This document shows positions 40,705-63,917 of a DNA stretch of 64,000 nt, piece by piece. The position numbers and the translations under genes were made by a program. Each line of letters starts with the position of its first letter. The stretch's first letter is position 1. Below the pieces are notes generated by a model. That model was not told the DNA's origin and ran no database searches. It saw only the letters and a list, made by a program, of their open reading frames with translations. The stretch comes from Desulfosoma sp. (GTDB lineage Bacteria > Desulfobacterota > Syntrophobacteria > Syntrophobacterales > DSM-9756): the NCBI GenBank assembly GCA_037481835.1, contig JBBFKW010000013.1, positions 64,001 to 128,000 of the forward strand. The letters run 5' to 3'.

Positions 40705-43700
40705 TCATTGCCGAGCAGCGGAAGTGTCGGGCTGCTGTTCGGGAGCCGGCGGGTTTGGGATGACGACGTGGCGGCGCACAACGATGGCACAGGCTCTGGC
40801 CACGTTGGCTTTCATGGAGTGGAGCACGCGGATCGACCGCTCCACCCATTCCATGACCGAAGCGCGCGAGACCCCGGGGACGGGGCTCGCCAGGGACCGT
40901 TCCGCATTGGCCCGCGCGGCTCGTATCAGATCATCAATGGATTCATCAAGCTGGCGCCGGGCCGGGGCGATGAGGGTTTCCAAGTGGGCCGCGACACGTT
41001 CCGGATCCCTTCGGGCGGCAGACAGAATGCGCCACGCGTCTTCGAAGAGAGACCGTGCGGAATGAATCCGAGCGAGGTCTATCCCGTTTTGTCCGGCTGC
41101 CACCAAAAGCCGGTCACAGTATTTCATGAGGTCTTTGGCCGTTTTTCCGGTGAAGCCCCGGCTTGCAGCCTCGGCGGCGACATGGGAAATCATCGCCAAA
41201 TCGTCCAGGAAAGACATGTAGTTCATGGCCGGAGAAAGCGGCGTAAAGGGGCCGAGCCGAACATGGGCAATATTTTCTCGTCGCGTCACATGGCGAGCGG
41301 CTCCGCCGGGGCTGGCGTAAGGGCCCTCCACGGCGGCATTGACCCGTGATTGGATTCGGGCCATCTCTTCCGCTAGAGCGGCTTTTCGGGCTGGATCCGT
41401 TTCCATGACGAACCGTCGGTGGATGTCGTCCAGCTGGAGTTCCAAGCGGGCTCGCAGTGTTGGGTCGGACGAGAGCCGGCGCAGTTCGTCCAGCCGTTCA
41501 GTGACCCTTTCCATGGGAACGCCCGCGTCCCGAGCGTAACGTTCCACGGTCTCCCGAGGGGTGCCTTCCCGGAGCATCCGGGCCAGGGTATTGAGTTCCG
41601 TTTCTCGGACCATGCGCTGCTCCACTTCGCGGGCCGCACGGCCTGGAAGATCGGCAAAGAAGTGGAGACGCCGCGGGTCGGAAAAGATGTCGGCATCCAG
41701 CAGCTGACGCCATGCGGATCCATACCGTCTTTCCATTACGGTTATGGCGTAGTTGCGATAGAAGGTGGCGTCGGGTCCCAAGAAGCTGATATCCACATCG
41801 CTGGTCATGGCGTTGGTGCCGGTCCGTTGCATGTGGGGGGGCCCGATGGTCCGGCCCGTGAGTCCCGGGCCCAGTTCGCTTGCCGCATTTTGCATTTCCT
41901 CCCTCAACAATTCAACTTGGCGCAGCCGCCAGGCCTGCATCCGGTTCATGACTTCCACCCCTTGATCCCCGGACCGCGCCAAAGCGCGGGCCACATCGGA
42001 CCATTTGCCGCCGTGGAGGACGATGACCGCACCGGCGTTCCCGCCCATTTCATTGAGCTGGCGGGCCACCAAGGCGGCGTATTCCTGAGCGGCCTGGCTT
42101 CCTTCCCCGAGAGCGCGCCGCATCAAAGCGGCGTGTTCCGCGATCTGAGCCGCGGCTCTGTGTCGAGTGATGTCGGGAAACAGGCGGGCGACGCTGTCTG
42201 AGTCCCGCATGAGCTCTCGAGAGAGGCGGCTTTGCATCTCCGGGGCGGCCCTTTGAAAAACCTCCGCGCCGGCACGGCGCCCTCCGGATCGAAAAGCACT
42301 TTTGATAGCGTCCCCCAGTAGGGGCACAAAGCCCACGAGGGCCATGACCGTCTGAAGCTTCCCTTCGCGGCCTCCCGTCTGCCACATTTTGTGAATACCG
42401 GCGGCCACATCGCGGGCGTCTGCAATCTGCCCCACGATGGGAATGCATCCCACGAGAATCTGCCCGGTTGTTGCAGCGACTGAGGGTTCCTCGAACCAAT
42501 CGCCGAAAATGGCGCCCACGGCGAATTCTTCCACAGGGTTCAGGCCCGTGGAGTATTCCGTGTGGCGCCACCCCTCGGGGGTGCTTTCAAGCCATGCCCC
42601 GTCGGATGTGAGGATCTGTTCCACCTCCACTTGGGTGCCGCGCCGGAGGATATAGCCGTACCCGTCATCGTTGGGGCTGGTCAGATCCCTGAGGTGCACC
42701 TGGGGATCCAGTTCGTAGATATGCAGCCAATTGTCCGGAGCGCGCAAAACGACACGAGCTCCACGGAGCCGGAAAAGCCTTGCGAGCATTTCCCGCCGGC
42801 CCCGACTGTCGTTGTAATATCCATGCAATTCGCCGATTTCCCATCCGACGCGCACCGTGGTGTTCCACAATCGGCCGTGGATTTCGCCGATCACGCGACC
42901 GCGCACATCATGGAAGTGCCCGCCCATCTGGCGCCTGAGCTCAAGCATTTCCTCGAGGGTTTTCAACTGGGCGTGGACCAAAACCCTCTCATAATCAAGC
43001 CAGAAGCGCTGGATGGACATCACGTCCCGGAACCGCACACGACCGTTTTCGTGGGGGAATTGCCATTGACCCGGGCCCCAGCGGTAAATGAGCAAGGGCT
43101 GTGGCGGGTATCCGTCGGGAATGGTGAGGATCATGGGAAAGCTGATGAGTTCCCGGTAAAGTCTCTGTTTGTAGAGGCGCACCTCGGCCGGTGCTTCGGC
43201 TTCGGTTCCCACGACGTCTTCCGCCAGAACGCGGTCGGTGGGGATGACGAGAAAGCGATTCTCCCGGTCGATGGCCATTTGGCGGCCCGCCTGTTCCAGG
43301 AGCCGTTCTCGACGACGGACGTCTGTGGACAAGATGGACGAACGGATCGGATCAATGAGTCGCTCAAGGCGTTCCACTTCACGCCGCGCATCCAAGCCGC
43401 GTTGGATCTGCCGGACCTGGTCCTGGGAAAGGACGGAGACCAGGTGGGGAAAATCGCGGTTGAGGACTTCCTGTGCGTCGATTCGCGCCGGGGCGGGCGC
43501 CGCGCGCCCGGAGGATCGACGGCCGTGATCTTTCATCACGACCGAAGGCTTCCCTTCACCTAAAATGTTTTGCGCGACGGGCCTGTTTCCGGCCGAAAAA
43601 GACTTGTCCGGGATGGCGTGCGTTTCGTTCGAGCTCATGGCATCCAATGCCTCCGCGATATGCTCGGCTTGGATTTCCAAGGGGTCATCGGGGTGACTGA

Positions 43701-63512: not shown

Positions 63513-63917
63513 TCAGCTCTCCAAGGTCATGGTCAGGGCCGTCCGGGCCGGCCGATTGGTGCGCCGCAGCCTGTAGACGATTTCCACGCGGATTCGATCA
63601 GGGGTGTCGGCCACGGCTTCCACAAGCACATGATCCACCAGAATTCTCGGTTCCCATTTTTCCAGAGCGTCCAAGACGGCATCGTGAATCCGCCGACGGG
63701 TGCTCAACGTGTTCGGTTCGTGAACAAAGCGGCCCAGACCTGCGCCGAAAGCCGGACGCATGAGAAGCTCCCCGGGTTGAGTGAGCAGCACGATGCGGAT
63801 GCTCTGGCGGACGCTCTCCTCCAAAGAGGGGAAGTGGAGACGCCCGTCCGAATCGGGGACCGGAAGAAGGGGCCAGCCGATGGGTTCCGGCGGAAGATGG
63901 CTCGTCTTTCCAGGCAT
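63513..63917 (-). CDS. GPW/gp25 baseplate protein
   Basis: VRQSIRIVLLTQPGELLMRPAFGAGL...WEPRI; GGAGG upstream. Confidence 0.93.
   Translation of the reverse strand: MPGKTSHLPPEPIGWPLLPVPDSDGRLHFPSLEESVRQSIRIVLLTQPGELLMRPAFGAGLGRFVHEPNTLSTRRRIHDAVLDALEKWEPRILVDHVLVEAVADTPDRIRVEIVYRLRRTNRPARTALTMTLES

Follow-up and report, generated by a model that had tools for sequence, protein, structure and literature searches.

[quoted passage not shown] The cluster extends from position 40705 to about 10.9 kb past the end of the window and comprises 20 genes and a 60-codon ORF. A preliminary description had listed the ten genes and noted several overlapping stop and start codons. All the ORFs are present at these coordinates and three junctions overlap: TGATG between the baseplate J and Tail_P2_I genes, where the start of the latter overlaps the stop of the former by 1 nt, and ATGA both between the Tail_P2_I gene and that of a 295-aa protein and between the genes of 631-aa and 1251-aa proteins. 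Two further junctions are spaced by 3 and 6 nt. As suggested by translations and junctions, three genes are likely to start downstream of the longest ORF, at 61299 (not 61434), 50033 (not 50357) and 47979 (not 48225).

The same description had proposed an eCIS in a sulfate-reducer-like anaerobe and a look beyond position 64000. Directly past this position we revealed a Pvc16_N (DUF4255) cap protein (E 5.6e-32), a large sheath protein (Phage_sheath_1, 4e-27, and sheath C-terminal domain, 1.5e-14), a second sheath-like gene (PHROG tail sheath, 5.8e-12), two tube proteins (Phage_T4_gp19, 5.7e-41 and 2.4e-26), a tube initiator (CIS_tube, 1.8e-19) and a split VgrG-like hub/spike encoded by separate ORFs (Phage_GPD, 4.7e-12; Phage_base_V, 3.6e-24), which bears the proposal out. 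With gp25, J, the AAA ATPase and the DUF4157 protein inside the window, the cluster contains the parts by which an eCIS is recognized: sheath and tube, VgrG-type hub/spike, gp25 and J, and the Pvc16_N/DUF4255 cap, AAA ATPase and DUF4157 protein. Among solved structures, the sheath matched 8bky/9gtp at 4e-105, the thylakoid-anchored tCIS of Anabaena at 2e-50, Afp3 at 2.3e-50 and Pvc2 at 8.5e-47. An eCIS-superfamily machine, with the roles of its parts assigned by inference, is in our opinion quite probably the best explanation of the cluster, and no result speaks against its assignment as a CIS; eCIS loci in sulfate reducers are already on record (PMC10553843).

The earlier identification of the gp25, baseplate J, tail-I-like, AAA ATPase, patatin and DUF4157 genes is supported by Pfam and NCBIfam matches. 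The gp25-like wedge/sheath-initiator protein (63513..63917, minus strand, 134 aa; Afp9/Cis9/TssE equivalent) matches Pfam GPW_gp25 at 9.1e-24 and the TssE model TIGR03357 below cut-off (a 2.9e-7-range match, E 9.2e-7), and its median identity to 60 homologues in related loci is 57%. Baseplate J (61299..63509, minus strand, 736 aa; Afp11/Cis11/TssF equivalent) matches Baseplate_J at 1.2e-16 and TIGR02243 above cut-off at 5.7e-82. It is present in a single copy (one ORF among the locus genes scanned), and its best solved relative is 9gtp_1K (4.9e-43), an id that appears in the paper on the Streptomyces coelicolor CIS (PMC12237407). The Tail_P2_I/Cis12-like wedge protein (58933..61299, minus strand, 788 aa; TssG-like adaptor) has an N-terminal extension of about 500 aa and matches Tail_P2_I at residues 588–648 of the long ORF (2.9e-10), TIGR02242 (1.1e-16), a PHROG tail protein (3.5e-8) and NCBIfam CIS12_fam (3.8e-36; 125 bits against a cut-off of 860). 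If solved baseplates of CIS and T6SS are a guide, these three proteins would build the wedge as equivalents of TssE, TssF and TssG.

The next three minus-strand genes encode a short protein of 295 aa (58049..58936), a putative shoulder-fold, TssK/RBP-like peripheral baseplate protein of the eBAP3 type; a middle protein of 631 aa (56147..58042), in which the shared N-terminal module is followed by a helical C-terminal part; and a long protein of 1251 aa (52395..56150) with the shared N-terminal module of about 390 aa, a long, mostly helical middle and a small C-terminal domain. They had been described as three paralogues. They are indeed related, but to different degrees: the 631-aa protein is 25% identical to the 1251-aa one across 388 columns (E 4e-15), the 295-aa protein has only a 41-residue N-terminal stretch in common with the 631-aa one (E 7e-5), and its comparison with the 1251-aa protein gave E 0.012. 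The N-terminus of NCBIfam CIS13_fam was matched by the 295-aa (3.8e-12) and 631-aa (6.1e-6) proteins, far under the 370-bit cut-off. None of the three matched any Pfam family at E<=1, T6SS families included, and none had a sequence or profile match among PDB chains; the N-terminal motif of the 631-aa protein showed a weak profile match (E 0.15) to 9wt0_a, a trimeric 1443-aa PKD protein.

An AF2 model of the 295-aa protein (pLDDT 77.5) was compared with known folds. Of the 48,161 chains covered by an unbiased VIA search only nine reached Z>=5, and the top 13 rows consisted exclusively of phage RBP/fibre shoulders, TssK, IglD and Anabaena tCIS 7b5h. In a second comparison the model aligned with 9euj_G at Z 9.5 (rmsd 3.6, 125 aligned); the values were Z 6.5–6.9 for TssK 6n38 (6n38_E 6.9; rmsd 4.9–5.0, 159–167 aligned) and Z 5.2 for tCIS 7b5h_AA (rmsd 6.6, 187 aligned). 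The paralogues are thus predicted to carry the RBP-shoulder/TssK fold, the fold comparison having been run on the short one, and the trio may work like TssK. Membership of the TssK family itself was rejected: the likeness is one of fold only, with no sequence-family membership, and the genome has no TssM.

According to Nachmias et al. (2026; PMC12923769), eBAP3 fibres are TssK-like and sit on TssG-like Tail_P2_I adaptors, and in the supplement of that paper a Desulfacinum locus with two neighbouring fibre genes is classed as eBAP3. The cluster resembles the eBAP3 loci described there in that several adjacent genes directly follow Tail_P2_I and that a shoulder-like, TssK-resembling N-terminal anchor is predicted for their products. 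Indirectly, by fold and gene order, the trio would represent the eBAP3 class. The paralogues had been taken as replacing a recognizable fibre, whereas they appear to belong to a shoulder-fold, TssK-like class of fibres.

A set of 185,579 species genomes yielded 363 pattern matches; 337 of them encode a relative of the 631-aa protein. In the best 80 loci of these 337 species genomes the order gp25, J, Tail_P2_I, 295-aa, 631-aa, 1251-aa, 746-aa protein and ATPase recurs, the genes of the three paralogues being found in 76, 80 and 78 of the 80 loci, respectively, with the misses at locus ends. Many phyla are represented, among them Desulfobacterota, Myxococcota, Nitrospirota, Chloroflexota, Acidobacteriota, Gemmatimonadota and Pseudomonadota. 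Far from being a one-off oddity, the arrangement is the norm in a lineage that is widespread and has been catalogued but not studied by experiment. The distal architecture, called unusual in the preliminary description, is common to all 80 loci examined; "a little-characterised subtype with an unknown target" is still a fair description of a lineage on which we found no experimental work.

The 631-aa protein has at least 419 database relatives, none of them functionally named. Median identity was 40.7, 40.8 and 30.3% for the 295-aa, 631-aa (78 loci) and 1251-aa proteins, vs 40.6% for Tail_P2_I, and residues 1–450, 500–600 and 800–1200 of the 1251-aa protein were matched in about 80–100% of 76 loci. 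Hence conservation of the trio equals that of the core baseplate genes, a point absent from the literature found. No receptor-binding domain (lectin, Ig) was detectable in the three paralogues; 28 of 30 homologues of the long one had no Pfam family and one contained a CBM_5_12 insert. Nor was there a hydrophobic segment at a conserved position, a weak segment being seen in 10/76, 19/80 and 37/78 homologues of the 295-aa, 631-aa and 1251-aa proteins. Unlike the eBAP3 loci as presented in PMC12923769, which stresses rapid evolution and diverse receptor-binding domains of fibres, the cluster has a fixed trio of short, middle and long proteins, whose order is kept across phyla. Conserved across phyla in a core-like manner and lacking a recognizable receptor-binding domain, the three proteins resemble fixed structural legs or trigger elements more than they do host-range fibres, which evolve fast. 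Their TssK-like N-terminal module would dock on the periphery of the wedge, with extensions lengthening from 295 to 631 and 1251 aa.

The cluster probably belongs to lineage II. For subtype IIb, Chen et al. (2019; PMC6899500) describe a VgrG split into gp27-like and gp5-like ORFs and a single afp11, as well as the absence of afp10/PAAR and the presence of afp6. Here, Phage_GPD and Phage_base_V are separate ORFs and Baseplate_J is a single ORF. There was no PAAR match among the ORFs scanned, which included one of the gap ORFs of >=40 aa, and position alone marks the 60-codon ORF as a candidate afp6.

In sequence, the solved sheath and baseplate J nearest to those of the cluster come from the S. 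coelicolor system CIS-Sc (8bky, 9gtp). Further points of likeness are the CIS-Sc wedge, which consists of two J-type copies and one Cis12 (PMC12237407), and a gene for a membrane protein within the cluster. As differences, PMC12237407 describes CIS-Sc as having no fibre genes and using CisA, and CIS-Sc is of type IId, for which PMC6899500 gives an unsplit VgrG; in the present cluster the hub/spike is split, there are three proteins of the shoulder fold, and the hairpin protein is a different one. The Anabaena tCIS (7b5h) is similar in having trimeric shoulder-type peripheral proteins on the baseplate (crown Cis19, which is eBAP4, and Cis13). It is described as anchored by a Cis13 transmembrane helix and an extended Cis12, and as having a Cis6 and a PAAR-like Cis10, whereas the paralogues studied here have no conserved transmembrane helix and PAAR was not found among the ORFs scanned. 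With Afp/PVC (lineage I, insect pathogens) the cluster shares the overall part list, the order fibre, (tape measure), ATPase, and the cargo at the 3' end. The differences described for Afp/PVC are an unsplit VgrG, PAAR, Afp12 instead of the Tail_P2_I adaptor, a cap gene placed last and not first, and a single adenovirus-like Afp13 fibre with a helical anchor of about 50 aa (eBAP1; PMC12923769).

The gene following the trio (50081..52321, minus strand) encodes a 746-aa protein that could be assigned to no known family and occupies the place of Afp14 (tape measure). It had been called tape-measure-like; the position agrees with this, but no Pfam, NCBIfam or PHROG match was obtained, and none of 29 homologues had a Pfam family. 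Only its ends (residues 1–150 and 650–746) are conserved while the proline-rich middle varies, homologues ranging from 443 to 794 aa. A length-variable middle between conserved ends and a location before the ATPase gene are tape-measure traits, and on position only this protein would be the best candidate for a length or assembly factor; according to Chen et al. (2019; PMC6899500), afp14 is generally missing from lineage II. The AAA+ ATPase in the Afp15/Cis15 position (47994..50033, minus strand, 679 aa; AAA 6.7e-23, WHD 1.4e-8) has a homologue after that of the 746-aa protein in 59 of 80 loci, the remaining loci ending earlier. Its orthology to Afp15 is judged from position only, and its role may be the one suggested for Afp15, in assembly or the loading of cargo.

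Next to the ATPase gene lies that of a patatin-like phospholipase with DUF3376 (45040..47979, minus strand, 979 aa; Patatin 1.5e-15, DUF3376 1.9e-24), which matched TIGR03607 at 5.3e-113 (379 bits vs a cut-off of 262). Its translation contains GxSxG and DGG motifs; we take GxSxG to be the serine motif and DG the aspartate motif. Two C-terminal hydrophobic helices (residues 933–951 and 955–973) suggest that the protein is membrane-anchored, which is absent from the literature found. The gene is kept downstream of the ATPase gene in two Desulfacinum genomes (71–72% identity), and directly adjoins it only here, D. infernum having two extra ORFs in between; there was no match in the other loci examined, whose downstream flanks are short. 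Apparently specific to the Desulfacinum-related clade, the patatin could, by pure inference, be either a second effector or an opener of the producer membrane for release.

The last gene (40705..44928, minus strand) encodes a candidate cargo or toxin of 1407 aa that consists of an N-terminal region, a DUF4157 domain (HExxH) and a C-terminal module of about 975 aa. The eCIS_core/DUF4157 match (5.4e-28) spans residues 321–397 and is the sole one in the genome; PMC8213781 reports DUF4157 at the N-terminus of toxins whose genes are the 3'-terminal ones of eCIS operons. The C-terminal module is rare, with 12 relatives, itself counted, in 5.8 billion clusters, and does not appear in the literature found. 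One Desulfacinum genome keeps the entire protein (67%) and another just the first 431 residues (56%). We suppose that the protein is the cargo and the module an exchangeable toxin part, in which a hydrophobic, glycine-rich block that is conserved precedes a well-folded domain (AF2 model of residues 951–1407, pLDDT 88) whose invariant TGT...SDxD...D signature is nucleotidyltransferase-like. This activity is putative: hhalign comparison of the C-terminus with 14 NTP_transf_2 domains gave 17 columns (probability 1.4%, E 0.037), an Atlas lead scored 0.82, under its bar, and fold searches with the model gave generic helical-bundle matches only, so that the beta core was barely probed. A further protein, encoded beside the spike, comes from a family with about 1,300 sequence clusters; a hydrophobic hairpin is present in 55/55 of its homologues, and this invariant hairpin is likewise absent from the literature found.

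As to the mode of action, we lean slightly towards release as free particles, the true eCIS mode. A rather unlikely alternative is that the machine is not released and acts from within the producer, where the cytoplasmic membrane would anchor or trigger it, as with Streptomyces CIS/CisA, the Anabaena tCIS or T6SS; the TssK-like trio would then be the connector, and the hairpin protein, perhaps with the membrane-bound patatin, the membrane partner. The nearest solved sheath (4e-105) and J (4.9e-43) are indeed those of the cytoplasmic S. coelicolor CIS (8bky/9gtp), which speaks against free release, and according to PMC12237407 that system depends on a membrane protein whose gene takes the usual place of fibres. 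Nearness to CIS-Sc does not, however, carry over its mode of action, since it is of another subtype, with an unsplit VgrG (PMC6899500) and no fibres described (PMC12237407). Likewise, the trio has the fold of TssK, the linker of the T6SS baseplate to the membrane complex, and its core-like conservation without receptor-binding domains also argues against free release, but the paralogues have no positionally conserved hydrophobic segment, such proteins are treated as target-binding fibres in the published catalogue (PMC12923769), and the CBM_5_12 insert in one homologue of the long paralogue fits an outside target. The hairpin in all 55 homologues of the spike-adjacent protein points to the membrane and away from free release, and the two hydrophobic helices of the patatin also fit a membrane site, while the DUF4157 cargo at the operon end is a hallmark of eCIS.

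With still lower confidence, it can be imagined that the three proteins, instead of being alternative host-range fibres, form an obligate leg of fixed stoichiometry, which would sit on the TssG-like adaptor as a hetero-oligomer or as a stack of three trimers and, with the hairpin protein, would couple the baseplate to a membrane. A T6SS-like or membrane-triggered mode would then have evolved without TssJLM, and the patatin would have been added in the Desulfacinum-related clade to breach the membrane.

A defective prophage tail or an R-type tailocin, which would kill by depolarization without cargo, seems very improbable. All structural parts are homologues of phage-tail proteins and the Tail_P2_I wedge resembles P2 and pyocin baseplates (PMC12923769), but the eCIS-specific set (Pvc16_N cap, AAA ATPase, DUF4157) is present and the spike is of the split VgrG type. 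Housekeeping genes flank the cluster (hydrogenase/Hdr-like genes at one end; flavodiiron, radical-SAM and chemotaxis genes at the other). Neither in about 8 kb on the cap side nor in the 40 kb that the window covers on the cargo side is there a capsid, terminase, portal or integrase gene, and the window has no tRNA; the preliminary description had regarded such phage genes, as well as T6SS genes, as decisive against its proposal. A canonical T6SS can practically be dismissed: the wedge logic of the TssE-TssF-TssG-TssK baseplate is shared (gp25, J, Tail_P2_I and TssK-fold proteins, and an AAA ATPase), but VipB/TssC (PF05943) and TssM (PF06761) are absent from the 99.4%-complete genome, E. coli controls giving matches, the sheath is of the one-piece phage type and not TssBC, the Pvc16 cap and DUF4157 are present, and three diverged paralogues matching no Pfam T6SS family stand in place of one TssK.

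Thus, the cluster adds a complete and well-delimited Tail_P2_I/eBAP3-type injection system from a thermophile-related sulfate reducer to a lineage no member of which has a structure or a known target. It offers as leads a three-gene leg set conserved across phyla, a hairpin family encoded beside the spike, and a rare cargo module next to a lipase predicted to be membrane-anchored. These data leave current views in place; they direct structural studies to the second main type of eCIS baseplate and to the choice between release of such systems and action at the membrane of the producer.

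The ten minus-strand genes at 40705–63917 form the distal half of a locus of approximately 34 kb that encodes a whole contractile injection system belonging to the eCIS superfamily. The assembly holding the window (3.63 Mb, 99.4% complete; the window is contig C13:64001–128000) continues past base 64000, and in the next 20 kb (L002; window coordinate = L002 coordinate + 63000) we found the sheath, tube, hub and cap genes that the preliminary description had proposed to seek there. All lie on the minus strand. From the upstream end of the cluster, a cap protein matching the Pvc16_N family is followed by a 279-aa protein without a family, an 809-aa sheath, a gp19 tube, a 569-aa sheath-like protein, another gp19-type tube/adaptor, a CIS_tube family protein, a 60-codon ORF (L002:4376–4558), and a hub split into Phage_GPD (gp27-like) and Phage_base_V (gp5-like) family members. 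The last gene before the window encodes a 518-aa protein without a family (L002:1009–2565, about 9–1565 bases past the window end), whose likely start is residue 22. The 60-codon ORF, located between the CIS_tube and gp27-like genes, has an ATGA overlap with the upstream stop, and its sole match is a weak PHROG of unnamed function (0.0022); by position only, it is a possible candidate for an Afp6/Cis6-like spike plug.

The flanks hold housekeeping genes. Past the cap gene there are NiFe-hydrogenase and Hdr-like genes, and below the DUF4157 gene a flavodiiron protein, a radical-SAM protein and a chemotaxis-type cluster; the annotated flanks contain no capsid, terminase or integrase genes. VipB/TssC and TssM are absent from this 99.4%-complete genome. 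None of the observations that the preliminary description had named as refuting was therefore made: the sheath, tube and cap genes are present, and the prophage genes just listed, VipB/TssC and TssM were not found. The system is complete, and the original identification as an eCIS was right. Promoter and terminator scans at both cluster ends were uninformative, and no tRNA was found within the window. The chemotaxis-type signalling cluster (26626–35249, plus strand) encodes CheR-TPR, CheW, an MCP with a dCache domain, a CheA-like hybrid kinase, CheB and a response regulator. Elsewhere in the window, the region 6622–22473 (plus strand) carries densely packed oxygen-defence genes, as is typical of strict anaerobes; they encode peroxiredoxins, desulfoferrodoxin, ferritin, three rubrerythrin-like proteins, a multihaem cytochrome, a thioredoxin-like DUF255 protein and a heavy-metal P-type ATPase.

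The ORF listing of the window contains the ten genes as first described, and matches to GPW_gp25, Baseplate_J, Tail_P2_I, AAA, Patatin with DUF3376, and eCIS_core/DUF4157 agree with the identities initially assigned to them. Three gene junctions overlap (TGATG, ATGA and ATGA), as had been noticed, and two further ones have gaps of 3 and 6 nt. For three genes, better start positions (61299, 50033 and 47979) lie downstream of the longest-ORF starts. The three proteins of 295, 631 and 1251 aa between the Tail_P2_I and 746-aa genes had been called paralogues, which holds well for the two larger ones: their N-terminal parts of about 390 residues are common (25% identity, E 4e-15). What the 295-aa protein has in common with the 631-aa protein is limited to an N-terminal motif of 41 residues (E 7e-5), and its similarity to the 1251-aa protein is marginal (E 0.012). 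Both the 295-aa and 631-aa proteins match the NCBIfam model CIS13_fam over its first ~80 positions, with scores far under the cut-off.

To the preliminary description, the distal architecture of the locus was unusual; the comparison of genomes shows that it is not. Databases contain at least 419 relatives of the 631-aa protein, all without a functional name. In a pattern scan of 185,579 species, each represented by a single genome, 337 of the 363 matches encode a relative of this protein, and we compared all twenty window proteins with the ORFs of the best 80 of these 337 loci. All 80 share the order GPD – base_V – 518 – gp25 – J – Tail_P2_I – 295 – 631 – 1251 – 746 – ATPase, and one or more DUF4157 genes often come after the ATPase. 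The sources of these best 80 loci include Desulfacinum, Desulfatitalea, Smithella, Sorangium, Archangium, Nitrospira, Chloroploca, Pyrinomonadaceae, Gemmatimonadaceae, Longimicrobium, Hydrogenophaga, Variovorax and Methylococcaceae. Under stricter start-codon criteria, homologues in the same 80 loci were counted for the 631-aa protein in 80, the 1251-aa protein in 78, the 295-aa protein in 76, the 746-aa protein in 64 and the 518-aa protein in 55; where the 295-aa or 1251-aa gene is lacking, the locus starts or stops at that point.

Within the class of the window, the distribution is patchy: the 631-aa protein was found in three of 122 genomes, namely the window's own and two of the three genomes of a neighbouring genus that holds the named Desulfacinum records, and it is absent from all three other species of the window's own genus. 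GC3 falls below the threshold of 0.70 in five of the ten window cluster genes (631-aa, 746-aa, ATPase, patatin and DUF4157 protein), is 0.71–0.72 in the remaining five and 0.70–0.86 in the neighbouring genes (window 1–40000). The low GC3 together with the patchy distribution suggests that the cluster was horizontally acquired.

To characterize the trio, we modelled the 295-aa paralogue with AlphaFold2 (32 homologues in the alignment; pLDDT 77.5, pTM 0.76). Foldseek gave weak but uniform matches to TssK, the Anabaena tCIS (7b5h), the phi812 baseplate and the receptor-binding protein (RBP) of lactococcal phage 1358. In the Foldseek-independent VIA search of 48,161 representative chains, 44 reached Z≥2 and nine Z≥5, and the top 13 rows were all of one kind, i.e., shoulders of phage RBPs and tail fibres, TssK, IglD and tCIS. 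The best was the phage 1358 RBP (Z 7.6, rmsd 3.9, 156 aligned), accompanied by the HFTV1 fibre (Z 6.5), Mtd (6.3), the p2 RBP, the cyanophage A-1(L) fibre, SPP1 gp22 and phi812, by TssK (6.5, 5.6 and 5.6), IglD (4.5) and tCIS 7b5h_AA (5.2), after which the rows fall to unrelated chains at Z ~3. Rescoring of the Foldseek list gave Z 9.5 for phi812 9euj_G. The predicted structure supports an RBP-shoulder/TssK fold for the 295-aa paralogue, with middling Z values and a clean match list; by relatedness, we take the N-terminal modules of the 631-aa and 1251-aa proteins to have the same putative fold. In the Protein Data Bank, neither sequence nor profile searches found a significant match for the three paralogues; the one hint was a weak motif match to 9wt0_a (E 0.15). 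Complex prediction with the N-terminal modules (1–295, 1–300 and 1–325) and the short paralogue as partner scored 0.00 in both runs, a result that is neutral on a hetero-oligomer. PHROGs gave no match for the paralogues, nor for the 746-aa and 518-aa proteins, the patatin or the DUF4157 protein.

The shoulder/TssK fold agrees with the sections of PMC12923769 (2026) used here, where five N-terminal anchor domains of eCIS fibres are defined. One of them, eBAP3, is a shoulder-like domain of ~200 residues found in 1420 genes; in eBAP3/5 systems the adaptors are of the Tail_P2_I kind and resemble TssG, the fibres resemble TssK, and more than one fibre gene occurs in 23.4% of 2585 loci. In the portion of its supplement that we used, a Desulfacinum locus is classed as eBAP3 with two adjacent fibre genes. 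By those gene-content rules of PMC6899500 (Chen et al., 2019) that we applied, the locus would fall in lineage II, probably subtype IIb, on account of its split VgrG and its one afp11.

The trio is a fixed set whose short and middle members are as conserved across phyla as Tail_P2_I: the median identity across loci is 40.7% for the 295-aa protein (n = 75), 40.8% for the 631-aa protein (n = 78) and 40.6% for Tail_P2_I (n = 49). For the 1251-aa paralogue it is 30.3% (n = 50), and residues 1–450, 500–600 and 800–1200 are matched in ~80–100% of 76 loci. No Pfam family was detected in 28 of 30 long homologues; the other two have a CBM_5_12 insert and a weak coiled-coil match, respectively. This core-like conservation with a near-absence of Pfam domains is a pattern unlike that of fast-evolving receptor binders. 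The CBM_5_12 insert (1.9e-7), the sole recognisable binding module in the 30 long homologues scanned, is located within the shoulder region of the homologue from an Anaerolineae MAG (L011:11902–16086).

Two further proteins are recurrent parts of these loci. The gene for the 518-aa protein separates the gp5-like spike gene from gp25 and occupies the place where PAAR is expected. The best-conserved part of the protein is a hydrophobic hairpin at the C-terminal end, present in all 55 homologues. The family comprises 1278 cluster representatives at E≤0.001, 894 at 1e-10 and 258 at 1e-30 among 1.84 billion; no Pfam family was detected in 23 homologues, and an Atlas search returned unnamed clusters only. 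The 746-aa protein, without a family itself and with none from Pfam in 29 homologues, is conserved only at its ends and variable in length in the middle; by its position before the ATPase it is a candidate tape measure.

The 1407-aa DUF4157 protein (40705–44928), the only one in the genome, is the presumed cargo. For its last ~975 residues, just 12 of 8000 scored candidates were relatives, the protein itself being one of them. The whole protein is kept in Desulfacinum infernum (67% identity). In a Desulfacinum MAG (L086; G002:C38:34256–35518) the match covers only residues 4–431 (56%), inside a 1000-aa frame, and a different sequence follows; the C-terminal module is therefore exchangeable, and this match points to the swapping of cargo modules behind a constant N-terminal part. 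In the alignment of the module, a hydrophobic block rich in glycine precedes an invariant TGT...SDxD...D signature. Residues 951–1407 were modelled confidently (pLDDT 88, pTM 0.86); for the module, a Protein Data Bank sequence search gave no match and Atlas scores stayed under its bar, while with the model Foldseek gave no match at E≤0.001 and the wide VIA search returned generic helical-bundle rows only (best Z 9.9 over residues 274–438). When the module was compared by hhalign with 14 genuine NTP_transf_2 domains, just the motif aligned (probability 1.4%). Since the NTP_transf_2 profile match is weak and the fold rows are helical bundles only, the idea of a nucleotidyltransferase has the standing of a lead rather than of a result. 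Downstream of the cargo gene there is no obvious immunity gene. The minus-strand ORF at 40081–40644 (187 codons), the next one after the cargo gene, was considered for this role; it lacks a family, has an Arg/Pro/Gly-rich translation, is doubtful as a real gene and was not counted in the system.

The patatin gene (45040–47979) scores above the TIGR03607 cut-off and encodes lipase motifs and two C-terminal hydrophobic helices. In both Desulfacinum genomes, a conserved counterpart (71–72% identity) lies downstream of the ATPase gene. No match was found in other loci, where only three of 59 ATPase loci have at least 3 kb of downstream sequence. Among the titles, abstracts and main texts covered, we found no paper tying patatin to eCIS cargo, and the word is absent from the main texts of PMC8213781 and PMC11297309. 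In D. infernum, two extra ORFs that are not in the window lie between the ATPase and patatin genes (L004:20506–21890), one of 226 aa with hydrophobic helices and the other with an N-terminal signal-like segment and an HExxH-type motif.

Both the inventory of parts and the DUF4157 cargo favour release of the particle. A membrane-associated or intracellular mode of action is rather unlikely, and several features would fit it: the nearest solved relative is the cytoplasmic system of S. coelicolor (sheath 4e-105, baseplate J 4.9e-43), the trio, with its predicted TssK fold, shows the conservation of core genes, the hairpin protein is invariant, and the patatin lipase would be anchored in the membrane by its two C-terminal helices. 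Three features seem to lie beyond what the consulted sections of the PMC12923769 catalogue report: (i) the degree of conservation of the trio, (ii) the conserved hairpin protein beside the spike, and (iii) the 746-aa protein with conserved ends and a variable middle. The Desulfosoma locus is a real, complete member of a known lineage that has been catalogued by computation and is untouched by experiment, and it has a few peculiarities that can be tested.
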